From Escherichia coli (GTDB taxonomy: Bacteria > Pseudomonadota > Gammaproteobacteria > Enterobacterales > Enterobacteriaceae): a stretch of DNA of 64,000 bases. Position numbers and translations under genes: made by a program. Positions 1 through 31,662 of this stretch are shown here, in pieces; the stretch's first letter is position 1; each line of letters opens with the position of its first letter. The stretch lies in the NCBI RefSeq assembly GCF_041248615.1, contig NZ_CP158426.1. One strand, 5' to 3'. The notes under the pieces were generated by a model. The model was not told the origin of the DNA. It did no database searches and worked only from the letters and a program-made list of their open reading frames with translations.

Positions 1-276
1 AACACGTTTGGCATTGATCGCAGGCGTACCATCAAGTTCGGCCTGTCTGCGAAGCAGCGCCCATACCCGACGATAACCATACGTGGGCAGCTCTCCGATA
101 ACATGGTGTATACGGAGAAGCACATCCGTATCATCTGAGTGACGGCTGCGGCGACCATCTTTCCAGTCATCGGTTCGTCTGAGAATTACGTGCAACTGCG
201 CACGCGACACCCGGAGACAACGGCTGACTAAGCTTACTCCCCATCCCCGGGCAATAAGGGCGCGTGCGCTATCCAC
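1..276 (-). CDS. insD: IS2 transposase OrfB (InsD), N-terminal part only; truncated by window edge
   Basis: Reverse complement of 1-276 translates to (M/V)[45 protein letters not shown]...INAKRV; it overlaps the insC 3' end in another frame, as expected for IS3-family OrfAB frameshifting. Confidence 0.8.
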
Positions 277-599
277 TTTTTTGCACGCCCGTATTCAACG
301 GCTTCTTTAAGGAGTTCATTTTCCATCGTTTTTTTGCCGAGCAGGCGCTGGAGTTCTTTAATCTGCTTCATGGCAGCAGCAAGTTCAGAGGCAGGAACGA
401 CCTGCTCTCCTGCGGCCACAGCAGTAAGACTTCCCTCCTGGTATTGCTTGCGCCAGAGAAATAACTGGCTGGCTGCCACACCGTGTTGCCGGGCAACAAG
501 GGAGACCTTCATTCCCGGTTCAAAACTCTGCTGAACAATAGCGATCTTTTCCTGTGTAGTACGCCGTCTGCGTTTCTCCGGTCCTAAGACATCAATCAT
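234..599 (-). CDS. insC: IS2 transposase OrfA (InsC), 121 aa
   Basis: ORF 234..644 (-) contains [29 protein letters not shown]...[10 protein letters not shown]; start trimmed to the internal Met at 599. Confidence 0.85.
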
Positions 600-687
600 C
601 TGCTCTCCAATGACTAGTCTAAAAACTAGTATTAAGACTATCACTTATTTAAGTGATATTGGTTGTCTGGAGATTCATGGGGCCAGT

Positions 688-765
688 CTACATATAATCA
701 TGTTCATCTTCTAATTCTTTAAATTTTAATAGAGAAATCTCTTCATAATATTCTTTCATTTTCAT
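688..765 (-). pseudogene. Short ORF (MKMKEYYEEISLLKFKELEDEHDYM*) with a good Shine-Dalgarno; its stop codon TAG is the first triplet of the IS2 terminus, so it is probably the 5' remnant of a gene interrupted by IS2
   Basis: AAGGTGA lies 5 nt upstream of the ATG at 765; the frame runs straight into the IS2 end (TAGACTGG). Flanking DNA is very AT-rich. Product not recognised. Confidence 0.3.
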
Positions 766-1184
766 ATAAATCACCTTTTATTTTTTTGTTGTTAACACAG
801 GTTTTTTTCTGCACTACACATTATAGCACATAGAATTAATTCGTTTCATTTTCTGTCAATGAAATAGAGTAAAGATAAATGCTTTTATAAAGCACTTATC
901 ACATCCGTTGCCTTGCTATATATAAAAAGTTCTCCAAACTATACTGGTGTATATTTTCCCCATCAGATACAGTTGTTTTTAAACATTACAATGTTGGATT
1001 CTTGGTTCCAAATAAATCGAGCAACTATTAGTGTTTCAAAATGAAGTTGGGAGCTATTCCTTAATTCGTATGAGGTACAAAATGGGGTACTCGGTGGGGT
1101 ACAGCGTGTATAAGTGACGTCACCACGGGTAAACTTGCATCGGCGAGCAACTTAACCTAAGCTGACAAAAATTAAGAGAAATGT

Positions 1185-1317
1185 AACCAAACGACTCGGG
1201 GTGCCCTTCTGCGTGAAGGCTGAGAAATACCCGTATCACCTGATCTGGATAATGCCAGCGTAGGGAAGTCACGGACCACCAGGTCATTGCTTCTTCACGT
1301 TATGGCAGGAGCAAACT
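1185..1317 (+). promoter_or_regulatory. TPP (thi-box) riboswitch in the thiM 5' leader
   Basis: Sequence AACCAAACGACTCGGGGTGCCCTTCTGCGTGAAGGCTGAGAAATACCCGTATCACCTGATCTGGATAATGCCAGCGTAGGGAA matches the well-known thiM TPP aptamer (CUGAGA motif, P1-P5 arrangement), directly upstream of the thiM ATG. Confidence 0.9.
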
Positions 1318-2106
1318 ATGCAAGTCGACCTGCTGAGTTCCGCGCAATCTGCGCACGCGTTACACCTTTTTCACCAACATTCCCCTCTTGTGCACTGCAT
1401 GACCAACGATGTGGTGCAAACCTTTACTGCCAATACCTTGCTGGCGCTCGGTGCATCGCCAGCGATGGTTATCGAAACCGAAGAGGCCAGTCAGTTTGCG
1501 GCTATCGCCAGTGCGTTGCTGATTAACGTTGGCACGCTGACGCAGCCACGCGCACAGGCGATGCGTGCCGCCGTTGAACAGGCAAAACGCTCTCAAACAC
1601 CCTGGATGCTTGATCCAGTAGCGGTGGGTGCACTCGATTATCGCCGCCGTTTTTGTCTGGAACTTCTGTCTCATAAGCCAACCGCCATACGTGGTAATGC
1701 TTCGGAAATCATGGCATTAGCTGGCGTTGCTAATGGTGGACGGGGAGTGGATACCACTGACGCCGCAGCTAACGCGATACCCGCTGCACAAACACTGGCA
1801 CGGGAAACTGGCGCAATCGTCGTGGTCACTGGCGAGATGGATTATGTTACCGATGGACATCGTATCATTGGTATTCACGGTGGCGATCCGTTAATGACCA
1901 AAGTGGTAGGAACTGGCTGTGCATTATCGGCGGTTGTCGCTGCCTGTTGTGCGTTACCAGGCGATACGCTGGAAAATGTCGCATCTGCCTGTCACTGGAT
2001 GAAACAAGCCGGAGAACGCGCAGTCGCCAGTAGCGAGGGGCCAGGCAGTTTTGTTCCACATTTCCTTGATGCGCTCTGGCAATTGACGCCGGAGGTGCAG
2101 GCATGA
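1318..2106 (+). CDS. thiM: Hydroxyethylthiazole kinase
   Basis: 262 aa ORF beginning [33 protein letters not shown]; recognised ThiM; overlaps thiD start by 4 nt. Confidence 0.95.
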
Positions 2107-2903
2107 AACGAATTAACGCTCTGACGATTGCCGGTACTGATCCGAGTGGTGGTGCGGGGATTCAGGCCGATCTTAAAACCTTCTCGGCACTTGGCGCTTA
2201 TGGTTGCTCAGTGATTACTGCACTGGTGGCGCAAAATACCCGTGGCGTACAGTCGGTGTATCGCATTGAGCCTGATTTTGTCGCCGCCCAGCTCGATTCG
2301 GTGTTCAGCGATGTGCGAATCGATACCACTAAAATCGGTATGTTGGCGGAAACCGATATTGTTGAAGCGGTGGCAGAACGGTTGCAACGTTATCAGATCC
2401 AAAACGTGGTACTCGACACCGTTATGCTGGCAAAAAGCGGCGACCCGCTGCTTTCACCTTCGGCGGTTGCTACGCTGCGCAGTCGATTATTGCCACAGGT
2501 TTCATTAATAACGCCAAACTTGCCCGAAGCTGCTGCCTTGCTCGACGCGCCACACGCGCGCACCGAACAGGAAATGCTGGAACAAGGGCGATCGCTGTTG
2601 GCGATGGGCTGTGGCGCAGTGCTAATGAAAGGTGGTCATCTGGATGATGAGCAAAGCCCGGACTGGCTGTTTACTCGCGAGGGAGAACAACGGTTTACCG
2701 CACCGCGCATTATGACCAAAAACACCCACGGCACTGGTTGTACGCTCTCTGCGGCGTTGGCTGCACTACGCCCGCGCCATACAAACTGGGCTGACACCGT
2801 ACAGGAGGCAAAAAGCTGGCTTTCATCGGCGTTAGCCCAGGCCGACACGCTGGAAGTTGGTCACGGTATTGGTCCGGTTCACCACTTCCACGCCTGGTGG
2901 TGA
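2103..2903 (+). CDS. thiD: Hydroxymethylpyrimidine / phosphomethylpyrimidine kinase
   Basis: 266 aa [34 protein letters not shown]...; PfkB-like ThiD, translationally coupled to thiM. Confidence 0.95.
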
Positions 2904-2958
2904 GCACCGTACTATAGCTGCTTTGGTTATTGTCAGCCTTTGGCACTGACATTCAGGG

Positions 2959-3786
2959 ATGAAACCAATGCAGCTAAGAATCACCAGTCGAAAAAAACTC
3001 ACCGCTTTATTATGCGCTCTTGGGCTAATTTCCATCGTTGCGATTCATCCGCGTCAGACGGTGAATTTTTTCTATTCGACAGCAATTCAGATTAAAGACT
3101 ACATCCACTTCTACGGTTATCGCCCGGTTAAATCTTTCGCTATTCGCATTCCTGCCAGTTACACCATTCACGGAATAGATGTTTCGCGCTGGCAGGAGCG
3201 AATCGACTGGCAGCGGGTGGCAAAAATGCGCGATAACGGTATTCGCTTGCAATTTGCCTTTATCAAGGCGACGGAAGGCGAAAAGCTGGTGGACCCCTAT
3301 TTTTCGCGTAACTGGCAACTAAGCCGCGAAAATGGCCTGCTGCGCGGGGCGTATCATTATTTTTCCCCGTCGGTATCCGCTTCAGTTCAGGCGAGATTAT
3401 TTCTGCAAACGGTGGATTTCTCACAAGGCGATTTCCCTGCCGTGCTGGACGTAGAAGAACGGGGAAAATTATCGGCAAAAGAATTACGCAAGCGGGTAAG
3501 TCAGTGGCTAAAAATGGTCGAAAAAAGTACGGGGAAAAAGCCGATTATTTACTCAGGAGCCGTTTTTTATCACACGAATCTGGCGGGCTATTTCAATGAA
3601 TATCCGTGGTGGGTGGCTCATTACTATCAACGTCGTCCGGACAATGACGGCATGGCCTGGCGCTTCTGGCAGCATTCCGACCGTGGACAGGTAGATGGCA
3701 TTAATGGTCCGGTGGATTTTAATGTGTTTAATGGCACGGTGGAGGAGTTGCAGGTATTCGTTGATGGGATTAAAGAAACGCCTTAA
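2959..3786 (+). CDS. yegX: Glycoside hydrolase family 25 (lysozyme-like) protein with N-terminal signal/anchor
   Basis: 275 aa ORF; position after thiD and recalled YegX identity; hydrophobic N-terminus LTALLCALGLISIVA. Confidence 0.8.
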   Translation: MKPMQLRITSRKKLTALLCALGLISIVAIHPRQTVNFFYSTAIQIKDYIHFYGYRPVKSFAIRIPASYTIHGIDVSRWQERIDWQRVAKMRDNGIRLQFAFIKATEGEKLVDPYFSRNWQLSRENGLLRGAYHYFSPSVSASVQARLFLQTVDFSQGDFPAVLDVEERGKLSAKELRKRVSQWLKMVEKSTGKKPIIYSGAVFYHTNLAGYFNEYPWWVAHYYQRRPDNDGMAWRFWQHSDRGQVDGINGPVDFNVFNGTVEELQVFVDGIKETP

Positions 3787-3837
3787 ATAAGAAGCAGTGA
3801 TATACTCCCACCAGACTCCCTGGCAGGAAAAAGACAA

Positions 3838-4584
3838 ATGGAACAAGCGCATACCCAGCTGATTGCCCAACTGAACGAACGTATTTTAGCGGCGGATAAC
3901 ACGCCGCTTTATATTAAGTTTGCCGAAACGGTAAAAAATGCCGTGCGCAGCGGGGTGCTGGAGCATGGCAATATTTTGCCCGGTGAGCGTGATTTAAGTC
4001 AGTTAACCGGCGTTTCGCGCATTACGGTGCGCAAGGCGATGCAGGCGCTGGAAGAAGAGGGCGTGGTGACGCGTTCGCGTGGTTACGGTACGCAGATCAA
4101 CAACATCTTCGAATACTCGTTGAAAGAAGCGCGAGGTTTTTCTCAGCAGGTGGTATTGCGCGGGAAAAAGCCCGATACACTATGGGTTAACAAGCGTGTC
4201 GTGAAATGTCCCGAAGAAGTCGCGCAGCAGCTAGCGGTCGAAGCAGGAAGTAATGTCTTTTTGCTTAAGCGTATTCGCTATGTCGATGAAGAAGCGGTAT
4301 CAATTGAGGAATCGTGGGTTCCGGCGCATTTAATTCATGATGTTGATGCCATCGGAATTTCTCTTTATGACTACTTCCGCAGCCAGCACATTTACCCACA
4401 ACGTACGCGTTCCCGCGTTAGCGCCCGGATGCCGGATGCCGAGTTTCAGTCACATATTCAGTTAGATAGCAAAATACCGGTGCTGGTGATCAAGCAAGTG
4501 GCGCTTGACCAACAGCAACGGCCTATTGAGTACAGCATTAGCCACTGTCGCAGCGATCTATACGTTTTTGTGTGCGAGGAGTAG
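3838..4584 (+). CDS. yegW: GntR-family (HutC-like) transcriptional regulator
   Basis: 248 aa; N-terminal winged HTH (LPGERDLSQLTGVSRITVRKAMQALEEEG) followed by a UTRA-like effector domain. Confidence 0.8.
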   Translation: MEQAHTQLIAQLNERILAADNTPLYIKFAETVKNAVRSGVLEHGNILPGERDLSQLTGVSRITVRKAMQALEEEGVVTRSRGYGTQINNIFEYSLKEARGFSQQVVLRGKKPDTLWVNKRVVKCPEEVAQQLAVEAGSNVFLLKRIRYVDEEAVSIEESWVPAHLIHDVDAIGISLYDYFRSQHIYPQRTRSRVSARMPDAEFQSHIQLDSKIPVLVIKQVALDQQQRPIEYSISHCRSDLYVFVCEE

Positions 4585-5523
4585 TTCCTCGCGCGTTGGC
4601 GCACAATCACCGCCCCGATGCCCGACAACCCATGACGCCACTGCATTGCCCAGTAATACAGCATCCGCCAGTGGCAGACCAGAGGCCAGCCCGGCAAGTA
4701 CGCCGCCGGCATGACTGTCGCCCGCCCCAATGGTGTCTACAACTTGAGTTGGAAATGCCGGAATGCAGCCAGAAGCGTCGTTGCTGAAATACCATGCGCC
4801 CTCTTTATCGAGACGAATGATCAACGGCGCGGCAAATTTCTCCTGCCATTGCTTGCCAAGTGTTGTTATCTCTGCGGATAAAGCAAAACGTTCGGCGGCA
4901 ATCTCAGCCTCCTGACGATTGAGTGACACTAAAGGTCGACAGGCCATGATCCGCGCCAGTAATGCATCCGGGATATCGCCAATACGTGGGCCAAAATCGA
5001 TAAACGGCGTCACGTCTTGCAGCTTTTCCAGCCATTCCACTAATAATTCGCCGCAGGGCGAGGCCAGTTGATAACCGGAAAAATAGAGCAGGCTGCCAGG
5101 CGCAACGGTTAATCGCGCCAGCCACTGGCGATTCCACTGATTTTCCACACCGCTGAATGACATAAAAGTGCGTTCGCCATCCGGCTCAACCAGCGCCAGA
5201 CACCAGCCGTTATCGCCTTCGGCGTTATCGATCAGGCTGATTAACCCCTCTTTCGCCATCCGGTTGCGAATAATCTCCGCCCACACGCCCTGACCGAGCG
5301 GCAAGGCATTACCCGCTTCGATGCCGAGGCGCTTTAACGCCACGGCAATATTCAGTGCGCAGCCGCCAACGTTAACGCTCTGCTGTTTCAGTTCGATATC
5401 GCACCCACGCCAGGGGAGGGCATAAGCGTCGGCGATCACATCAATGACCGCCGCGCCGACGACCATCACCGGCTGACGCGTGGCTAATTCAGGCAGCAGC
5501 GTGTGTAATCGAGCGCCGCTCAT
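4558..5523 (-). CDS. yegV: PfkB-family sugar/nucleoside kinase
   Basis: 321 aa; PfkB signature near the C-terminus (DTIGAGDSHAGG); start overlaps yegU stop (ATGA). Confidence 0.8.
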   Translation of the reverse strand: MSGARLHTLLPELATRQPVMVVGAAVIDVIADAYALPWRGCDIELKQQSVNVGGCALNIAVALKRLGIEAGNALPLGQGVWAEIIRNRMAKEGLISLIDNAEGDNGWCLALVEPDGERTFMSFSGVENQWNRQWLARLTVAPGSLLYFSGYQLASPCGELLVEWLEKLQDVTPFIDFGPRIGDIPDALLARIMACRPLVSLNRQEAEIAAERFALSAEITTLGKQWQEKFAAPLIIRLDKEGAWYFSNDASGCIPAFPTQVVDTIGAGDSHAGGVLAGLASGLPLADAVLLGNAVASWVVGHRGGDCAPTREELLLAHKNV

Positions 5524-6524
5524 ATCGCCTCCCGTTGTTGGCGATACTTCGCCAGCGCCGTGGCATAGCGGTTGAAATCAAGCTGATTTACCGCATCCAG
5601 TTCCGTCTTTAACGCAGGATCGATTGCGTTAACGCCATGCAACGCGCCACAAATTGCCGTCGCCATAGCACCGATGGTGTCTGTGTCGCCGCCAAGGTTA
5701 GCGCACAGGACGGCGCAACGGTTCGGGTCGGTTTGTGCCAGTTCAACCAGCGCAATGGCGCACGGAACGGACTCAATAGTGCTGGTACCTGCGCCAACGA
5801 CCTGGTAAAGCTGTTCGCTGGCGGATTCGGTGCCGTCGGCATTGCGCACAATTTTCAGCGCAATCTCCAGACGTGCTGCCAGTGAGGCGCTGAAGGTAGT
5901 GATGCGTTTTTGTTGAGCATGTCGCGCAATTGAAGGCAGTGAATCAACAATTGCTGACCAGCTTTCTCCGTCAATGGCACGAGAAATCGCCCATGCGATG
6001 ACTACCGCCCCCGCAACCGCCAGATCGGATTTATGTGTCGGGCTGGAGGCCAGCGCCACATCATCAATAAAGGAATCAACATCACGCGCCGGAAGCAAAC
6101 AACCTAATGGCGAGACGCGCATCGCTGCGCCGTTGGTCACGCCGTTATTTTCCAGTTCAGCAACGGGTTTACCGTCGCGAATGGCGTTAAGCGCAATCTT
6201 CGAGGTCGGACCTAGTACGTTTTTGTTAAAGGCGTCGAAACGCAGCGCCCAGTCGAGAATATTACGCCCAATCAGATCTGGATCGATCTTGCCTTCACGT
6301 TCCAGTAACGCATCCGCCAGACACAGCGCCATCGAGGTATCGTCGGTGAATTCGGCGCGGTTAAAATAACAGGCTGCGTTATTCTCCTTTGGTCCAGGCA
6401 GAAAACGATCAATCCAGCCAAAGTGTGCTTTAACGCGGCTGCGTGGCCAAAGCTCGGAGGGCATCCCCATCGCATCCCCTAACGCCTGCCCATAAAGAGC
6501 ACCGAGAATACGTTCTGTTTTCAT
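5520..6524 (-). CDS. yegU: ADP-ribosylglycohydrolase-family protein
   Basis: 334 aa; MKTERILGALYGQALGDAMGMPSE... is typical of the DraG/ARH family N-terminus; overlaps yegT stop (ATGA). Confidence 0.8.
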   Translation of the reverse strand: MKTERILGALYGQALGDAMGMPSELWPRSRVKAHFGWIDRFLPGPKENNAACYFNRAEFTDDTSMALCLADALLEREGKIDPDLIGRNILDWALRFDAFNKNVLGPTSKIALNAIRDGKPVAELENNGVTNGAAMRVSPLGCLLPARDVDSFIDDVALASSPTHKSDLAVAGAVVIAWAISRAIDGESWSAIVDSLPSIARHAQQKRITTFSASLAARLEIALKIVRNADGTESASEQLYQVVGAGTSTIESVPCAIALVELAQTDPNRCAVLCANLGGDTDTIGAMATAICGALHGVNAIDPALKTELDAVNQLDFNRYATALAKYRQQREAI

Positions 6525-7798
6525 TTAACTTCCCCTTGTGTCAACGCAATATCGCGATCATCGACCTTGATAGCCGTAATTTCGTTGTCGGATTCGCGGA
6601 AAAAAATCATGAACAGCACGGCGATAATGGCAATCATCACCGCGCCAAAAGTCCACATCCCGGACCAGTTGAAAGTCAGTCCGTTTACCGGTTCCTGATA
6701 AGCGAACATCTTTTCCATCATCACACCGCCAAGACGATAGCCGAGCAAACTGCCGAAGCCCTGGCAGCAGAGCGTGATCAGCCCCTGCGCAGCGGTACGC
6801 ATATGCACGGGGGCTTTTTTATCGACATAGATGTAAGCGGTAACGTAGTAAAAATCGTAACTTACTCCATGCAGCAAAATGCCGAGGAACAGTAACGCGT
6901 AGGTGAAATATTCATCCGCACTACCGTAAATAAAGAAGCCATAGCGGATCGCAGCGGTGACCAGACCAAGTAATAATACCTTTTTGATACCAAAGCGTTT
7001 GGTGAAAAACGGCAATGCCAGCATAAAGAAGATTTCAGAGAACTGGCCGAGCGTCATCCAGCCAGTGGCGTTTTTCATACCGACTTCGGTCAGATAACCG
7101 TTGGCAAAGATGTAATAGAACGCCAGTGGCATCGCAAACAGGAATGAACAGAAGAAAAAGACGAGGAAGTTTTTATCGCGCAGCAGGATCAGCGCATCCA
7201 GGCCGAGCATGACTTTAATGTCCATTTTGCCGGTGCTTTTTGGCGGCGTGTCGGGCAGGAAAAACGCAAACACACCGAGCAGAGCAGAACTTCCGGCGGT
7301 AATCAGCAGCGGGATGTTAGTCGGAGAGATATCGGCATAACCCAGCATTTGCGGCAAAAATCCACATGCCAGACCAGAGGCAATCCAGCCGATAGTGCCC
7401 ATCACACGAATGCGTGGGAAATCACGCTCCACATCCGGCACGTTGGCAAAAGCGATACTGTTAGTCAGCGCAATGGTCGGCATATAGGTTAGCGAGTAGG
7501 CCAGCAGTAACGGGAAGAACCCGGCAAAAGTGGTCTGTTGCGCAGCGAAATACATCAGCGCCGCACCAGCGAACATCAATACCGCCAGCACTTTCTGCGC
7601 CGAGAAAAAGCGGTCAGTGATGGAGCCAACCAGAATTGGCGACAGGATCGCCGCAATGGCGGTACAGGCATACGACCAGCCAATTTCTCCGGCACTAAAA
7701 CCGCTTTTACTTAACCACAACCACAATGGCACAAACCACGCGCCCCAGATAAACCATTCAACAAACATCATGAACGACAGCTTTGCTGTTGTTTTCAT
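6521..7798 (-). CDS. yegT: Nucleoside:H+ symporter family (NupG/XapB-like) MFS transporter
   Basis: 425 aa, multi-pass hydrophobic protein; recalled YegT; first gene of an overlapping yegT-yegU-yegV operon. Confidence 0.8.
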   Translation of the reverse strand: MKTTAKLSFMMFVEWFIWGAWFVPLWLWLSKSGFSAGEIGWSYACTAIAAILSPILVGSITDRFFSAQKVLAVLMFAGAALMYFAAQQTTFAGFFPLLLAYSLTYMPTIALTNSIAFANVPDVERDFPRIRVMGTIGWIASGLACGFLPQMLGYADISPTNIPLLITAGSSALLGVFAFFLPDTPPKSTGKMDIKVMLGLDALILLRDKNFLVFFFCSFLFAMPLAFYYIFANGYLTEVGMKNATGWMTLGQFSEIFFMLALPFFTKRFGIKKVLLLGLVTAAIRYGFFIYGSADEYFTYALLFLGILLHGVSYDFYYVTAYIYVDKKAPVHMRTAAQGLITLCCQGFGSLLGYRLGGVMMEKMFAYQEPVNGLTFNWSGMWTFGAVMIAIIAVLFMIFFRESDNEITAIKVDDRDIALTQGEVK

Positions 7799-8054
7799 CT
7801 TTTAATTCCTTCATGACAGGTAATGTAAGGTACGCGATGACAACACCATTTAATAATACCTTTTAAATACCTTTGCGGTGAAAACTTGACCGCGGTAACA
7901 TTTTTTCTGATGAATCGAGCCAACAGAAAACGCTGAAAAAACATCCAAAAGATGGAAAAACTCGCCTGTAACGACCAGGATTATGATTGCCCGCAAAAGG
8001 CGGGCCAGGACAATCCATAGCCGATATCCAATCGGAATTTACGGGAGCATAGTA

Positions 8055-9107
8055 ATGACAGATATTGCGCAGTTGCTTGGCAAAGACGCCGACAACCTTT
8101 TACAGCACCGTTGTATGACTATTCCTTCTGACCAGCTTTATCTCCCCGGACATGACTACGTAGACCGCGTGATGATTGACAATAATCGCCCGCCAGCGGT
8201 GTTACGTAATATGCAGACGTTGTACAACACTGGGCGTCTGGCTGGCACAGGATATCTTTCTATTCTGCCCGTTGACCAGGGCGTTGAGCACTCTGCCGGA
8301 GCTTCATTTGCCGCTAACCCGCTCTACTTTGACCCGAAAAACATTGTTGAACTGGCGATCGAAGCGGGCTGTAACTGTGTGGCGTCAACTTACGGCGTGC
8401 TGGCGTCGGTATCGCGGCGTTACGCGCATCGCATTCCATTCCTCGTCAAACTTAATCACAACGAGACGCTAAGTTACCCGAATACCTACGATCAAACGCT
8501 GTATGCCAGCGTGGAGCAGGCGTTCAACATGGGCGCGGTGGCGGTTGGTGCGACTATCTATTTTGGCTCGGAAGAGTCACGTCGCCAGATTGAAGAAATT
8601 TCTGCGGCTTTTGAACGTGCGCACGAGCTGGGCATGGTGACTGTGCTGTGGGCCTATTTGCGTAACTCCGCCTTTAAGAAAGATGGCGTTGATTACCATG
8701 TTTCCGCCGACCTGACTGGTCAGGCGAACCATCTTGCGGCAACCATAGGTGCAGATATCGTCAAACAAAAAATGGCGGAAAATAACGGCGGCTATAAAGC
8801 AATTAATTACGGTTATACCGACGATCGCGTGTACAGCAAGTTAACCAGCGAAAACCCGATTGATCTGGTGCGTTATCAGTTAGCTAACTGCTATATGGGC
8901 CGGGCTGGGTTGATAAACTCCGGCGGTGCTGCAGGCGGTGAAACTGACCTCAGCGATGCAGTGCGTACTGCGGTTATCAACAAACGCGCTGGCGGAATGG
9001 GGCTGATTCTTGGACGTAAGGCGTTCAAGAAATCGATGGCTGACGGCGTGAAACTGATTAACGCCGTGCAGGACGTTTATCTCGATAGCAAAATTACTAT
9101 CGCCTGA
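8055..9107 (+). CDS. fbaB: Fructose-bisphosphate aldolase class I
   Basis: ORF 7983..9107 trimmed to [47 protein letters not shown] (350 aa), matching recalled FbaB. Confidence 0.9.
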
Positions 9108-9191
9108 TACGCCTTATACGAACAGCACTACCCCGTATGACGGAAAAGGCGTTTACGTCGCATCCGGCATAAAAACACGCGCACTTTGCTA

Positions 9192-9220
9192 CGGCTTCCC
9201 TATCGGGAGGCCGTTTTTTT
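9192..9220 (+). terminator. Rho-independent terminator downstream of fbaB
   Basis: GC-rich imperfect hairpin GGCTTCCC-TATC-GGGAGGCC followed by a T7 run. Confidence 0.5.
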
Positions 9221-9280
9221 GCCTGTCATTCTGATTAATTTTCGAATTGTCGTTTTTGTGATCGTTATCTCGAGATTTAA

Positions 9281-11480
<2,200 letters not shown>

Positions 11481-11489
11481 GGACGGTAT

Positions 11490-11942
11490 ATGACTAACCT
11501 GTTTGTTCGTAGCGGAATTTCTTTTGTCGATCGTAGCGAAGTTTTAACCCATATCGGTACTGAGATGCTCGCGAAAGGTGTGGTTCATGATACCTGGCCA
11601 CAGGCATTAATTGCCAGAGAAGCAGAATTCCCTACCGGGATAATGCTTGAGCAGCACGCCATTGCAATACCGCATTGTGAGGCGATTCATGCTAAGTCGT
11701 CAGCCATTTATCTGTTAAGGCCAGCAAATAAAGTTCATTTTCAGCAAGCGGATGATGATAATGACGTGGCGGTATCGTTGGTTATTGCGTTGATTGTGGA
11801 AAATCCGCAGCAGCAATTGAAACTTTTACGCTGTTTATTTGGCAAGTTACAACAGCCCGATATCGTCGAGACACTAATCACTCTTCATGAAACCCAGTTA
11901 AAGGAATACTTCACAAAGTATGTTTTAGATTCAGACGAATAA
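11490..11942 (+). CDS. gatA: PTS galactitol-specific EIIA component
   Basis: 150 aa; position and recalled sequence in the gat operon. Confidence 0.9.
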   Translation: MTNLFVRSGISFVDRSEVLTHIGTEMLAKGVVHDTWPQALIAREAEFPTGIMLEQHAIAIPHCEAIHAKSSAIYLLRPANKVHFQQADDDNDVAVSLVIALIVENPQQQLKLLRCLFGKLQQPDIVETLITLHETQLKEYFTKYVLDSDE

Positions 11943-11972
11943 ATCCCTCTGTAACAATAAAAAGGACTATTT

Positions 11973-12257
11973 ATGAAACGCAAGATTATTGTCGCTTGCG
12001 GAGGCGCGGTTGCGACCTCTACGATGGCGGCGGAAGAAATTAAAGAGTTGTGTCAGAGTCATAATATTCCTGTTGAATTAATCCAGTGTCGGGTTAATGA
12101 AATAGAGACCTATATGGATGGTGTGCATTTGATATGTACTACCGCCAAAGTTGACCGTAGTTTTGGCGATATTCCGTTAGTTCACGGCATGCCTTTTGTT
12201 TCTGGTGTCGGTATCGAAGCATTACAAAATAAAATTCTGACTATCTTACAGGGGTGA
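11973..12257 (+). CDS. gatB: PTS galactitol-specific EIIB component
   Basis: 94 aa [27 protein letters not shown]; active-site Cys near the N-terminus. Confidence 0.9.
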
Positions 12258-12260
12258 CCT

Positions 12261-13616
12261 ATGTTTTCAGAAGTCATGCGTTATATTCTCGACCTCGGCC
12301 CTACGGTGATGCTGCCGATTGTCATCATTATTTTTTCTAAAATATTAGGCATGAAGGCAGGCGATTGCTTTAAAGCGGGTCTGCATATCGGGATTGGCTT
12401 TGTTGGCATTGGCCTTGTGATTGGCTTAATGCTGGATTCCATTGGTCCGGCGGCGAAAGCGATGGCGGAAAATTTCGACCTGAATCTGCATGTGGTCGAT
12501 GTCGGCTGGCCGGGCTCTTCACCAATGACCTGGGCGTCGCAAATTGCGCTGGTGGCGATTCCGATTGCGATTCTGGTTAACGTGGCGATGCTACTGACCC
12601 GTATGACGCGGGTGGTAAATGTTGATATCTGGAATATCTGGCATATGACCTTCACCGGCGCATTGCTGCATCTGGCAACCGGTTCATGGATGATAGGGAT
12701 GGCGGGTGTGGTAATTCACGCGGCGTTTGTTTATAAGCTCGGCGACTGGTTTGCCCGCGATACCCGAAATTTCTTTGAGCTGGAAGGCATTGCTATTCCG
12801 CACGGTACGTCGGCGTATCTGGGGCCAATTGCGGTGCTGGTGGATGCTATCATCGAGAAAATCCCAGGCGTTAACCGTATTAAATTTAGCGCCGACGATA
12901 TTCAGCGCAAATTTGGTCCGTTTGGCGAGCCTGTCACCGTGGGTTTTGTGATGGGGCTGATTATCGGCATCCTCGCGGGTTACGATGTCAAAGGTGTATT
13001 GCAGCTGGCGGTAAAAACGGCGGCAGTTATGCTGTTGATGCCACGGGTGATTAAACCCATCATGGATGGTTTAACGCCTATCGCTAAGCAGGCCCGTAGT
13101 CGTTTACAGGCGAAGTTCGGCGGTCAGGAGTTCCTGATTGGCCTTGATCCGGCGTTGCTGCTGGGGCATACGGCGGTGGTATCGGCAAGCCTGATTTTTA
13201 TCCCGCTCACCATTTTAATTGCTGTTTGTGTTCCGGGTAATCAGGTACTGCCGTTTGGCGACCTTGCCACCATCGGTTTCTTTGTGGCGATGGCGGTCGC
13301 CGTGCATCGTGGAAATCTGTTCCGCACCTTAATCTCGGGTGTCATCATTATGAGCATCACCCTGTGGATCGCGACGCAAACTATTGGTTTGCACACCCAA
13401 CTGGCGGCTAACGCTGGGGCGTTAAAAGCCGGAGGCATGGTGGCATCAATGGATCAGGGCGGTTCTCCCATTACCTGGTTACTGATTCAGGTTTTCTCCC
13501 CGCAAAATATTCCCGGTTTCATTATTATCGGTGCCATTTATCTTACCGGTATTTTCATGACCTGGCGTAGAGCGCGCGGCTTTATTAAACAAGAGAAAGC
13601 CGTTCTCGCAGAATAA
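12261..13616 (+). CDS. gatC: PTS galactitol-specific EIIC permease
   Basis: 451 aa polytopic membrane protein; gat operon context. Confidence 0.9.
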   Translation: MFSEVMRYILDLGPTVMLPIVIIIFSKILGMKAGDCFKAGLHIGIGFVGIGLVIGLMLDSIGPAAKAMAENFDLNLHVVDVGWPGSSPMTWASQIALVAIPIAILVNVAMLLTRMTRVVNVDIWNIWHMTFTGALLHLATGSWMIGMAGVVIHAAFVYKLGDWFARDTRNFFELEGIAIPHGTSAYLGPIAVLVDAIIEKIPGVNRIKFSADDIQRKFGPFGEPVTVGFVMGLIIGILAGYDVKGVLQLAVKTAAVMLLMPRVIKPIMDGLTPIAKQARSRLQAKFGGQEFLIGLDPALLLGHTAVVSASLIFIPLTILIAVCVPGNQVLPFGDLATIGFFVAMAVAVHRGNLFRTLISGVIIMSITLWIATQTIGLHTQLAANAGALKAGGMVASMDQGGSPITWLLIQVFSPQNIPGFIIIGAIYLTGIFMTWRRARGFIKQEKAVLAE

Positions 13617-13663
13617 TTTTTACCTGAGGGGGAGTTTATCCCCCTTAATAATCAGGAGTTTTT

Positions 13664-14704
13664 ATGAAATCAGTGGTGAATGATACTGATGGTATCGTGC
13701 GCGTTGCCCAACGAGTCATTCCTGAAATTAAACATCAGGATGAGGTGCGGGTAAAAATTGCCAGCTCGGGATTATGTGGTTCCGATTTACCCAGAATATT
13801 TAAAAATGGTGCACATTATTATCCAATAACGTTAGGTCATGAATTTAGCGGCTATATTGATGCGGTGGGATCCGGTGTTGATGATTTACATCCTGGCGAT
13901 GCGGTTGCCTGTGTGCCGTTATTACCCTGTTTTACTTGTCCAGAGTGTTTGAAAGGGTTTTATTCCCAGTGCGCAAAATATGATTTTATTGGCTCGCGGC
14001 GTGATGGTGGATTTGCTGAGTATATTGTCGTTAACCGAAAAAATGTCTTTGCTCTACCCACGGATATGCCTATTGAGGATGGGGCTTTTATTGAACCGAT
14101 TACCGTTGGCCTGCATGCTTTCCATTTAGCGCAAGGTTGTGAGAATAAAAACGTTATTATTATTGGTGCCGGAACCATTGGCCTGCTGGCAATTCAGTGC
14201 GCTGTCGCGCTGGGAGCAAAGAGTGTGACGGCTATCGACATTAGCTCAGAAAAACTGGCACTGGCAAAATCTTTCGGTGCGATGCAAACATTTAACAGCC
14301 TTGAAATGAGCGCGCCGCAAATGCAGGGCGTTTTACGCGAGCTGCGCTTTAATCAGCTTATCCTCGAGACGGCTGGCGTCCCGCAAACCGTCGAACTGGC
14401 GGTAGAGATTGCCGGGCCTCATGCCCAGCTGGCGCTGGTGGGTACGTTGCATCAAGATTTGCATTTAACATCGGCAACGTTTGGCAAAATATTACGTAAA
14501 GAGCTGACGGTTATCGGCAGTTGGATGAACTACTCCAGCCCTTGGCCGGGGCAGGAGTGGGAAACGGCGAGCCGGTTGCTGACAGAACGTAAGTTAAGCC
14601 TGGAGCCATTAATCGCTCACCGTGGAAGCTTTGAAAGCTTCGCCCAGGCGGTGCGTGACATCGCTCGTAATGCTATGCCGGGCAAAGTGTTGCTTATTCC
14701 CTGA
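13664..14704 (+). CDS. gatD: Galactitol-1-phosphate 5-dehydrogenase (Zn-dependent MDR family)
   Basis: 346 aa with GHEFSG zinc-ADH motif and GAGTIG Rossmann motif. Confidence 0.9.
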   Translation: MKSVVNDTDGIVRVAQRVIPEIKHQDEVRVKIASSGLCGSDLPRIFKNGAHYYPITLGHEFSGYIDAVGSGVDDLHPGDAVACVPLLPCFTCPECLKGFYSQCAKYDFIGSRRDGGFAEYIVVNRKNVFALPTDMPIEDGAFIEPITVGLHAFHLAQGCENKNVIIIGAGTIGLLAIQCAVALGAKSVTAIDISSEKLALAKSFGAMQTFNSLEMSAPQMQGVLRELRFNQLILETAGVPQTVELAVEIAGPHAQLALVGTLHQDLHLTSATFGKILRKELTVIGSWMNYSSPWPGQEWETASRLLTERKLSLEPLIAHRGSFESFAQAVRDIARNAMPGKVLLIP

Positions 14705-14803
14705 AACCGCGGGCCAGCGTGATGCTGGCCCGGTATTGTGCAAAACAGATCATTCACCAATGGTCCCCCTTCGTTTACACTAGCCACAATTGAATATGGG
14801 TAA

Positions 14804-15583
14804 ATGACGATGAATTCATTCGAGCGAAGGAATAAGATCATCCAATTAGTGAATGAACAGGGAACCGTGCTTGTTCAGGATCTGGCGGGAGTATTTGCTG
14901 CCTCGGAAGCGACAATCCGTGCCGATTTGCGCTTTCTCGAACAAAAAGGCGTGGTTACGCGCTTTCATGGCGGTGCGGCGAAAATAATGTCCGGTAATAG
15001 TGAAACCGAGACCCAGGAAGTTGGGTTTAAAGAGCGATTTCAGCTCGCCAGCGCGCCAAAAAACAGAATAGCGCAGGCGGCAGTCAAAATGATCCACGAA
15101 GGGATGACCGTTATTCTCGACAGCGGAAGTACGACAATGCTTATCGCCGAAGGATTAATGACCGCCAAAAATATCACGGTGATTACCAACAGTCTCCCGG
15201 CAGCATTTGCCCTTTCCGAAAATAAAGACATTACTCTGGTCGTCTGTGGTGGGACCGTCCGCCATAAAACACGCTCGATGCATGGTTCCATTGCCGAGCG
15301 TTCATTGCAGGATATTAATGCCGATTTAATGTTTGTCGGTGCTGATGGTATTGATGCGGTTAATGGTATTACGACCTTTAATGAAGGTTATTCGATTAGC
15401 GGGGCGATGGTTACAGCCGCAAATAAAGTGATTGCCGTTCTCGATTCATCGAAATTTAATCGTCGCGGTTTTAATCAGGTACTGCCAATCGAAAAAATTG
15501 ACATTATTATTACCGATGATGCCGTGTCAGAGGTGGATAAACTGGCATTGCAGAAGACACGGGTGAAATTAATTACGGTGTAG
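14804..15583 (+). CDS. gatR: DeoR-family repressor of the gat operon, uninterrupted
   Basis: 259 aa ORF (possible alternative start at MNSF, 14810); N-terminal DeoR HTH (RRNKIIQLVNEQGTVLVQDLAGVFAASEATIRADLRFLEQKG) plus sugar-binding domain. Confidence 0.85.
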   Translation: MTMNSFERRNKIIQLVNEQGTVLVQDLAGVFAASEATIRADLRFLEQKGVVTRFHGGAAKIMSGNSETETQEVGFKERFQLASAPKNRIAQAAVKMIHEGMTVILDSGSTTMLIAEGLMTAKNITVITNSLPAAFALSENKDITLVVCGGTVRHKTRSMHGSIAERSLQDINADLMFVGADGIDAVNGITTFNEGYSISGAMVTAANKVIAVLDSSKFNRRGFNQVLPIEKIDIIITDDAVSEVDKLALQKTRVKLITV

Positions 15584-15593
15584 TATTGCTCTG

Positions 15594-15633
15594 TATGCCG
15601 GATAAAGTTTTTACACCGCATCCGGCATTACGG
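15594..15633. repeat. REP-like palindromic element between gatR and yegS
   Basis: GCCGGATAAAG...CGCATCCGGC imperfect palindrome typical of REP elements. Confidence 0.45.
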
Positions 15634-15664
15634 ATTCTCCCTGGTTCAAGAGAGAATAGTGTGA

Positions 15665-16564
15665 TTAACGCAACAATGGGCAATCTGGTGGTAATCGACA
15701 ACGCAACGCCGCCGGAAGTATTTCAATATGAAAGTTTTGTCCGCTCAACGGTTCGCCATCAAGATTAAAAGTGATTTCGTGTGGGGCTTGTATATCAAAC
15801 CACGACGAAGCGCCTTCGATAATATTCGGGTTATCTTCGTCAGATTTTAATGTTGATACGAGAGCCGGAAGAATTTCATCGCCGGTAAAAATGCGCAGTT
15901 GCAGCAAGCCATCGTTAATTAACGCGTTCGGGCACAATTGCTGACCGCCACCGGCCTGACGCCCGTTACCAATACCAATGACCAGGGCGTCACCTTGCCA
16001 GTGAAAGTTTTCACCGCGGATCTCACAACGGTCCGGTTGCAGAGTATCCATGCGCATTAAGCCATGAATGATGTAAGAGACGCCACCCAGCGCGGCTTTT
16101 AATTTTTCCGGCGTTTCTGTGGTAATACGCGTCCCAAATCCGCCTGTCGCCATATTAATAAAACAGGTTTGTTTGTTGACCTGCGCCATATCTATCGCAA
16201 TGGCGTCACCGGCAATTGCCAGTTTCAGCGCCTTATCCAGTGCCTCAGGAATCCTTACACTGGTGGCAAAATCATTGGCGGTTCCTAATGGCAAAATTCC
16301 TAGCGCGGGTATGTCATCCCCCTCACACTGAATCAACGCCGTAGAAACTTCATTAATGGTGCCATCGCCACCACCGGCAATCACCGTTGCGACGCCCAAC
16401 TTCCGGGCCTCCTCTACATATCGTGCGGCATCGCCTTTCTCCCAGGTGACCCGCACATGGATCGTCATTCCTTCCTCACGCAACAGCATAATTGCTTCGC
16501 GCAAGGGTAGATTGTCAGTGCTTTTGCCATTAAGAATCAGTAAGCTGGCGGGAATTTCTGCCAT
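15665..16564 (-). CDS. yegS: Lipid kinase, diacylglycerol-kinase catalytic-domain family
   Basis: 299 aa; GGDGT motif ([13 protein letters not shown]) of the DAGK_cat fold; recalled YegS. Confidence 0.85.
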
Positions 16565-16978
16565 GATCGTATGTGCCTTTATGATTGGTCTGTAGATAGT
16601 GTAGAGCAGAAAAGAAAAGGTGGAGTCAGAACAGGATGAAAGTCGGAGGATAAAAAGTCAGTTCAAGTATGGGGGATTCAGTGGTTACCACCAGGAGCTT
16701 GCAATGGGGACAGCGAATACTAACGGCAGCCACCGATAAATTTCAAAAAAGAGCATATACCTAATATTCAACTAAACAGTGGCATCTTCAATATACTATT
16801 AAAAATATATTAACCCCCCCATGGGGTTACCCGGAAGGGCATCCGTGTATGTAATTCCTACTTATGTAGGAAATGTTGTACAGAACATTTATTATAATCC
16901 TATTCAATTATAATAATCATGCCATTATTATATTTAAACACCAGAGCGTGTCGTTGGTATTTAATGGGGGAAGGTGAG

Positions 16979-17296: not shown

Positions 17297-17453
17297 GAAT
17301 ATTTTTGGTAAGCGTCAAACATGCGCGTTCTGGTTGTGCTTAGCCGGAACCTGTGCGAGCACGATGCCGTTACGTGAAAGGCATCGTGCTATGAAGAGAG
17401 ATTCTATCGATGTGGTCAATGGAAGACGGTGACCAGGGATAGGGCTTATGCAT

Positions 17454-17480
17454 AAAAAATAAGCCCGTGTAAGGGAGATT
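17454..17480. other. 27-bp phage P2 attachment-site core (AAAAAATAAGCCCGTGTAAGGGAGATT) overlapping the cyaR 3' end; apparently unoccupied
   Basis: Exact 27-mer present in the sequence; identification as the P2 att core is from memory of the literature. Confidence 0.5.
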
Positions 17481-17540
17481 ACACAGGCTAAGGAGGTGGT
17501 TCCTGGTACAGCTAGCATTTTATGGGTTATGTTTTTCAGC
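17454..17540 (-). ncRNA. cyaR: CyaR (RyeE) CRP-dependent Hfq-binding sRNA
   Basis: Reverse complement equals GCTGAAAAACATAACCCATAAAATGCTAGCTGTACCAGGAACCACCTCCTTAGCCTGTGTAATCTCCCTTACACGGGCTTATTTTTT, including terminator hairpin and U-tail; possible TCACA CRP half-site upstream on the minus strand. Confidence 0.85.
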
Positions 17541-17624
17541 GAAACGGATGATAACCTTAATAAATGCAGCTGTATGTGATCGGTTTCTAAGAATTTTCCA
17601 TCCGGGAAAAATAATCGAAATTAA

Positions 17625-30856: not shown

Positions 30857-30999
30857 GAAACGGGAAAGCCCCTCCCGAGGAAGGGGCCTTAAATAAGGAA
30901 AGGGTCATGATGAAGCTACTCATCATCGTGGTGCTCTTAGTGATTAGCTACCCAGCATACTAAGACTACCAGGGCGGGGGAAACCCCGCTCTACCCTCA
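30857..30999 (-). ncRNA. Sib antisense RNA (SibB-like), copy 1
   Basis: Minus-strand promoter TTGACA-17nt-TACTTT (31034..31006) and hairpin GCCCCT/AGGGGC followed by U-run near 30857-30887; transcript fully overlaps the ibs ORF. Ends are approximate. Confidence 0.6.
30907..30963 (+). CDS. Type I toxin Ibs (18 aa, MMKLLIIVVLLVISYPAY), IbsB-like
   Basis: Short hydrophobic ORF with SD AAGGAAAGGG upstream; matches recalled Ibs family; too short for the ORF track. Confidence 0.75.
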   Translation: MMKLLIIVVLLVISYPAY

Positions 31000-31184
31000 C
31001 TCCTGAAAGTATGCCTTCACGATAAGATTGTCAATCTGCAGGCTTTGCAGTCTGCGATCCTGCCAGCAAATATTCTTTGCGAGACGTTACGCAATAATCA
31101 CACTGGAAACTATTTTATCCGCAAGTCAGCGATAGACTGCATACAGGGCGAAAGGAGGTAAGCCGACGATTTCAGCGGGACGCT

Positions 31185-31327
31185 GAAACGGGAAAGCCCC
31201 TCCCGAGGAAGGGGCCTTAAATAAGGAAAGGGTCATGATGAAGATACTCATCATCGTGGTGCTCTTAGTGATTAGCTACCCAGCATACTAAGACTACCAG
31301 GGCGGGGGAAACCCCGCTCTACCCTCA
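31185..31327 (-). ncRNA. Sib antisense RNA, copy 2
   Basis: Same promoter and terminator as copy 1, shifted by 328 bp. Confidence 0.6.
31235..31291 (+). CDS. Type I toxin Ibs (18 aa, MMKILIIVVLLVISYPAY), IbsB-like, second copy
   Basis: Same unit as copy 1 shifted by 328 bp; one substitution (L4I). Confidence 0.75.
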   Translation: MMKILIIVVLLVISYPAY

Positions 31328-31513
31328 CTCCTGAAAGTATGCCTTCACGATAAGATTGTCAATCCGCAGGCTTTGCAGTCTGCGATCCTGCCAGCAAATA
31401 TTCTTTGCGAGTCGTTACGCAATAATCACAGAGGAAACTATTTTGGTCACGCGTTAGCGATAGACTGCATTCAGGGCGAAAGGAGGTAAGCCGACGATTT
31501 CAGCGGGACGCTG

Positions 31514-31662
31514 AAACGGGAAACCCTCTCCCGGAGAAGAGGGCTTTTAATAAGGAAAGGGTTATGATGAAGCACGTCATCATACTGGAGATACTCTTAG
31601 TGATTAGCTTCCAGGCTTACTAAGAACACCAGGGGGAGGGAGAAACCTCTCCCTAACCCTCA
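31514..31662 (-). ncRNA. Sib antisense RNA (SibA-like), copy 3
   Basis: Minus-strand promoter TTGACA-17nt-TAATTT; terminator hairpin CCCTCT/AGAGGG plus U-run. Ends are approximate. Confidence 0.55.
31564..31623 (+). CDS. Type I toxin Ibs (19 aa, MMKHVIILEILLVISFQAY), IbsA-like
   Basis: Diverged third unit; SD AAGGAAAGGG conserved. Confidence 0.7.
   Translation: MMKHVIILEILLVISFQAY

Follow-up and report, generated by a model that had tools for sequence, protein, structure and literature searches.

The closest described counterparts of the gene analyzed here are the gatR alleles of Escherichia coli K-12 and E. coli HS. In K-12, gatR is a pseudogene inactivated by an insertion sequence (PMC9189660, PMC5094792, PMC9997739), and the gatR::IS3 lesion, with the constitutive gat expression that results from it, has been known since 1996 (Nobelmann & Lengeler, as cited by PMC9997739 and PMC9189660). 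The lesion raises gat expression in MG1655 (PMC3045373) and has been exploited in gut-evolution experiments (PMC5850726). When the MG1655 pseudogene was replaced by the native gatR of HS, amplified from yegS to gatD, the gat operon became regulated (Sousa et al., PMC5850726), and in mice, fresh IS insertions in the introduced HS gatR gave constitutive mutants again (PMC5850726). One sentence of the same paper names IS1 as the MG1655 gatR insertion; the K-12 sequence and annotation used here show IS3. A paper on NCM3722, also a K-12 strain, places the gatR disruption in MG1655 only (PMC3045373), which implies that gatR is apparently intact in NCM3722; in that case, IS3 would have entered gatR within a sub-lineage of K-12.

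Two further repressors were considered for comparison: AgaR, the DeoR-family repressor of the N-acetylgalactosamine/galactosamine operon, and SrlR/GutR, the repressor of the glucitol operon, which likewise governs a PTS hexitol operon. The pathways under GatR and AgaR both converge on tagatose bisphosphate.

The stretch of E. coli DNA analyzed here (the window) is 64,000 bases long and carries a gatR without IS3, in contrast to the IS3-split pseudogene of MG1655; a functional allele of this kind is known from wild isolates, e.g. HS. This gatR is probably a wild-type, functional galactitol repressor gene (probability of about 0.87). As a gene it is ordinary wild-type E. coli gatR and was already known.

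Reading frame and product of gatR

A single open reading frame without internal stop extends over gatR (Table 1), and encodes 259 aa when translated from ATG 14804. If translation begins instead at a second ATG of this frame, 14810, the product is the 257-aa protein WP_001295426.1; RefSeq/PGAP annotates this start at the identical loci in M217, HS and NRZ14408. The first-pass annotation had placed a DeoR-family gene of 257-259 aa at these coordinates; position, family and length were all correct, each of the two lengths belonging to one of the two starts. A weak Shine-Dalgarno-like GGG (14798-14800) lies 9 nt from ATG 14810 and 3 nt from ATG 14804, and with this spacing the ribosome-binding site, weak as it is, is better placed for the 14810 form. 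Intactness of gatR is independent of which ATG is used. A mini-ORF of three codons (ATG GGT AAA TGA, 14795-14806), the stop of which overlaps ATG 14804 as ATGA, was also seen; the same sequence is present in K-12, and it probably arose by chance.

The product has the features of the DeoR/GlpR family: an HTH_DeoR domain, a DeoRC sensor/oligomerisation domain, and a length (257/259 aa) within the expected range of ~250-260. With the E values of the two Pfam matches, the frame is not attributable to chance.

Table 1. Features of the gat locus, with coordinates in the 64,000-base window.
Feature	Position	Strand	Basis or remark
fbaB terminator	9191-9214		Terminator scan; single clear terminator in scan of 8800-16800
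gatY upstream regulatory region, 74% A+T	9215-9334	+	Sequence, inverted repeats, motif count, K-12 alignment
gatYZABCD, presumed GatR target	9335-14704	+	ORF list; lengths as in K-12/HS; RefSeq names in NRZ14408
gatY, 284 aa	9335-10189	+	Full-length
gatZ, 420 aa	10218-11480	+	Full-length
gatA, 150 aa	11490-11942	+	Full-length
gatB, 94 aa	11973-12257	+	Full-length
gatC, 451 aa	12261-13616	+	Full-length
gatD, 346 aa	13664-14704	+	Full-length
9-bp G+C-rich hairpin, then weak U tract (GUAUUGUG)	14710-14732	+	RNA fold; just 3' of gatD stop
gatR CDS, uninterrupted	14804-15583	+	ORF list; RefSeq annotation of identical loci
N-terminal DeoR helix-turn-helix, aa 8-60	14825-14983	+	Pfam PF08220 HTH_DeoR, E=1.3e-16, 60.5 bits (cutoff 21)
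C-terminal DeoR sensor/effector-binding domain, aa 85-238	15056-15517	+	Pfam PF00455 DeoRC, E=2.5e-51, 174.2 bits (cutoff 31.8)
GAC, IS3 target in K-12, unoccupied here	15106-15108	+	Alignment to K-12 gatR halves; junction reconstruction
Two hairpins in 81-bp gap between convergent gatR and yegS	15591-15657	.	RNA fold, -25.4 kcal/mol, z=-3.0

Comparison with the split gatR of K-12

The K-12 reference was NZ_CP062249.1, which carries the IS3-split, MG1655-type gatR. Its annotation holds two gatR pseudogene fragments, and between them an 'IS3-like element IS3 family transposase'. Reconstruction of the junctions gave an insert of 1258 bp, an IS3, with a 3-bp duplication (GAC) on either side. The corresponding GAC of the window, which is empty, occupies nt 303-305 of the 259-aa frame, close to the start of the sensor domain.

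Window gatR was colinear with both K-12 fragments, with no indel and no frameshift. A hidden indel or frameshift was considered, and was ruled out by this alignment together with the translation against the K-12 halves. After the IS and one GAC had been removed from the K-12 sequence in silico, the encoded protein was that of the window (0 aa differences). At the nucleotide level, 16 differences were counted, all at third codon positions and all synonymous; with no amino acid change beside them, this is the pattern of purifying selection.

The statement made earlier from the sequence, that gatR is intact and free of IS disruption, is therefore borne out by the continuous ORF and the empty GAC site, and the check that it had proposed, alignment to the K-12 gatR fragments, returned a colinear match with neither frameshift nor insertion. 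Its premise also stands: the gatR of MG1655-type K-12 is split by an insertion element, the 1258-bp IS3 present in both sequence and annotation, and the gat operon of MG1655, said to be constitutive through this lesion, is described as constitutively expressed or elevated (PMC5850726, PMC3045373, PMC9189660).

Identity as GatR

Window GatR does not differ from the GatR of E. coli HS (WP_001295426.1; 0 aa differences). It matches both halves of the K-12 pseudogene as well as the functional GatR of this wild isolate, and the gene lies at the distal end of gatYZABCD, between gatD and yegS, in a frame that no IS, frameshift or premature stop interrupts. Compared with E. coli GatR (HS; IS-excised K-12), protein, domain architecture and site (3' of gatD, convergent with yegS) are the same; set against the K-12 and HS alleles, the window gene differs by the 16 synonymous nucleotides, whereas at the protein level there is no difference.

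Among NCBIfam models, AgaR scored highest (NF040755, 232.9 bits, aligned over the full length, 3-259), followed through a full-length alignment by SrlR/GutR (NF007753, 226.3 bits). However, the first score is under the equivalog cutoff of 260 and the second far under that of 350, and the gene sits in a gat context rather than an aga one, and in an operon other than that of SrlR. Assignment of the ORF to AgaR or SrlR was rejected on these grounds, and since neither cutoff was reached, window GatR is a paralogue of these repressors and not a member of either family. NCBIfam holds no GatR-specific model; as the AgaR and SrlR matches were below cutoff, the name GatR rests on identity and synteny.

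The region upstream of gatY

The gene order fbaB-gatYZABCD-gatR-yegS(-) is common to the window, K-12, HS, M217 and NRZ14408. Operators of AgaR are TTTC-rich, and this background prompted the choice of the motif TTTC[AG][AT][AT], which occurs five times in 9215-9334 (lower coordinates 9240(+), 9291(+), 9302(-), 9308(-) and 9328(-)). The motif was chosen post hoc; against 0.40 occurrences expected, 5 were seen, a number reached by 0/2000 composition-matched shuffles. These motifs are putative GatR operators, and are offered as a lead. An inverted repeat, ATTTCA-N8-TGAAAT, lies over the likely -10 region 5' of gatY, longer inverted repeats pair 9235-9255 with 9306-9324, and a CRP-like sequence, TGTGA-N6-TCTCG, was found at ~9257-9272, also 5' of gatY. 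No definition of the GatR operators or of the inducer was found in the accessible literature.

A scan of 8800-16800 found no sigma-70 consensus promoter 5' of gatY or gatR, a result that is uninformative for a CRP-dependent promoter. The counts over the same interval were below shuffle expectation, both for promoters (8 vs 12.3) and for terminators (7 vs 8.7).

The fbaB-gatY intergenic region aligned well to K-12. The window departs from K-12 and HS by a group of substitutions with a 2-bp deletion at ~9223-9246, just past the fbaB terminator, and by one change each at 9274 and 9316. The HS allele has all five motif positions as well; the distal motif reads TTTCATA in K-12 and HS and TTTCGAA in the window. 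As a separate observation, an additional REP-like segment of 78 bp (GCATCCGGCA...GCCTGATGCGACGC...) is present in K-12 and HS at the point corresponding to window 9157/9158 and missing from the window; the intergenic region measures 307 bp in K-12 and HS and ~227 bp in the window.

There is a slim chance that the upstream allele of the window, through the changes at 9223-9246 and the replacement of TTTCATA by TTTCGAA, could shift the set-point of GatR or CRP control relative to K-12 and HS. If so, it would represent natural cis-regulatory variation in a locus known for strong, fluctuating selection in the gut. A rival reading, in which gatR is intact and the cis changes alter GatR or CRP binding and leave the gat operon mis-regulated (constitutive or non-inducible), is the best surviving alternative to the main reading and is nonetheless very unlikely. 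The cluster at ~9223-9246 would fit it, as would the position of the two single changes, the G/T at 9274 adjoining the CRP-like site and the T/C at 9316 falling within a putative operator. On the other hand, the window still has all five TTTCR motifs, the ATTTCA-N8-TGAAAT repeat and, between 9247 and the gatY start, the core of the region, and the repressor gene itself has changed only synonymously, which suggests continuing selection for function.

From gatD to yegS

The 98-bp gap between gatD and gatR is identical in the window and K-12, as are both gatR ATGs. The gap contains the hairpin listed just 3' of the gatD stop, which K-12 shares; for the 49-nt stretch around it, the fold energy was -21.1 kcal/mol (z=-3.1). 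This hairpin did not pass the terminator-like scan; it may act between gatD and gatR as a partial terminator, or else stabilise the mRNA. Transcription of gatR may come by read-through from gatD or from a weak promoter of its own. Downstream of gatR, the first of the two hairpins before yegS (15591-15633) is one we take to be REP-like (GCCGGATAA...GCATCCGGC).

The stability of the gatD hairpin, a gatD-gatR interval with no consensus promoter, and two candidate ATGs served by a single weak Shine-Dalgarno-like GGG could together indicate a gatR that is intact as an ORF yet silent or non-functional, through poor expression past the hairpin or a start giving an inactive product, so that the strain would be K-12-like. 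This is less probable again than mis-regulation in cis. The intergenic sequence and both ATGs are those of K-12, and an HS fragment in its native context, encoding the identical protein, restored regulation in MG1655 (PMC5850726).

Structural genes of the gat operon

All six structural genes have the lengths found in K-12 and HS and no internal stops, with 2-9 aa differences per protein. The nucleotide differences are mostly synonymous; in gatC, 2 aa differences stand against 31 nt differences. That missense changes among them inactivated the galactitol pathway, leaving a Gat-negative strain in which regulation is irrelevant, is the least probable explanation of all, for although those 2-9 aa changes and the recurrent, adaptive loss of gat function in the mouse gut (PMC5850726) might favor it, no truncation, frameshift or IS was found in any gat gene and the divergence is of the mostly synonymous kind that gatC exemplifies.

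Prevalence and strain identity

The 780-bp gatR was searched by megablast against 5426 complete E. coli genomes, and was counted as one piece when a single place covered at least 80% of it. Matches were obtained in 5109/5426 genomes: one-piece in 4756/5426 (about 88%) and partial only in 353; the gene was absent from the other 317. A 120-bp probe for the K-12 gatR/IS3 junction (coverage at least 80%) was found in 344 genomes; the examples listed, ER1709 among them, are laboratory strains. With these 344, almost all of the 353 partial gatR matches are explained. Uninterrupted gatR is the majority state of E. coli, and the IS3-split copy of MG1655 is the exception. As the majority state, an intact gatR is not distinctive.

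The first 25 kb of the window matched E. coli NRZ14408 (NZ_LT599825.1) at 100%, and a direct comparison, starting at record position 1923672, gave 0 mismatches over the full 64,000 bases, from which it follows that the window is not MG1655. The same had been proposed from the intact gatR, and is further upheld by the missing IS3 and the 16 synonymous gatR differences.

Other features of the window

A P2-like prophage remnant (ogrK and a fragment of late control D) lies in the yegR-yegQ/trhP gap of K-12 (window 17297-17624); the window, HS, M217 and NRZ14408 all lack it. The window starts (1-599) within an IS3-family transposase gene, at the right edge of an island of ~12.5 kb in NRZ14408. Genes of this island encode a tyrosine integrase, a HamA C-terminal-domain protein with a DEAD/DEAH helicase (a Hachiman-like defence pair), a recombinase and a second helicase. 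On either side of the island lies a copy of the thiM TPP-riboswitch segment, at 3-98 and 12668-12764 in the numbering of the island segment (1-12764); the latter copy corresponds to window 1187-1283. Three tandem Ibs-family type I toxin genes, ordinary for E. coli, lie between mdtA and yegL (window 30907-31623; NRZ14408 annotation).

Probable regulation of galactitol catabolism

The reading of window gatR as a wild-type, functional repressor gene carries with it a model of control that draws on family analogy and on the published K-12 and HS experiments. The product would be a DeoR/GlpR-family repressor that has its HTH at the N terminus and a sugar-phosphate sensor at the C terminus. It would bind the region upstream of gatY, and keep gatYZABCD (genes for the galactitol PTS, galactitol-1-phosphate dehydrogenase and tagatose-bisphosphate aldolase) off until galactitol is present. 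The inducer is presumably a phosphorylated intermediate of the pathway, and CRP-cAMP may add catabolite control. For this strain, we infer repression and induction, the positions of the operators and the identity of the inducer.

Because window GatR is identical to the HS allele that restored regulation in MG1655, galactitol catabolism is probably regulated in this strain, a view that is well supported. The first-pass annotation had likewise suggested that the strain probably retains regulated galactitol catabolism, and at that strength the suggestion agrees with a GatR equal to the HS allele, a gatD-gatR interval equal to that of K-12, a full-length gatYZABCD and a largely conserved gatY upstream region.

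An intact gatR is a correct strain marker in that it shows the window to be neither MG1655 nor W3110, and it cautions against carrying MG1655 gat expression data over to this strain unchecked.
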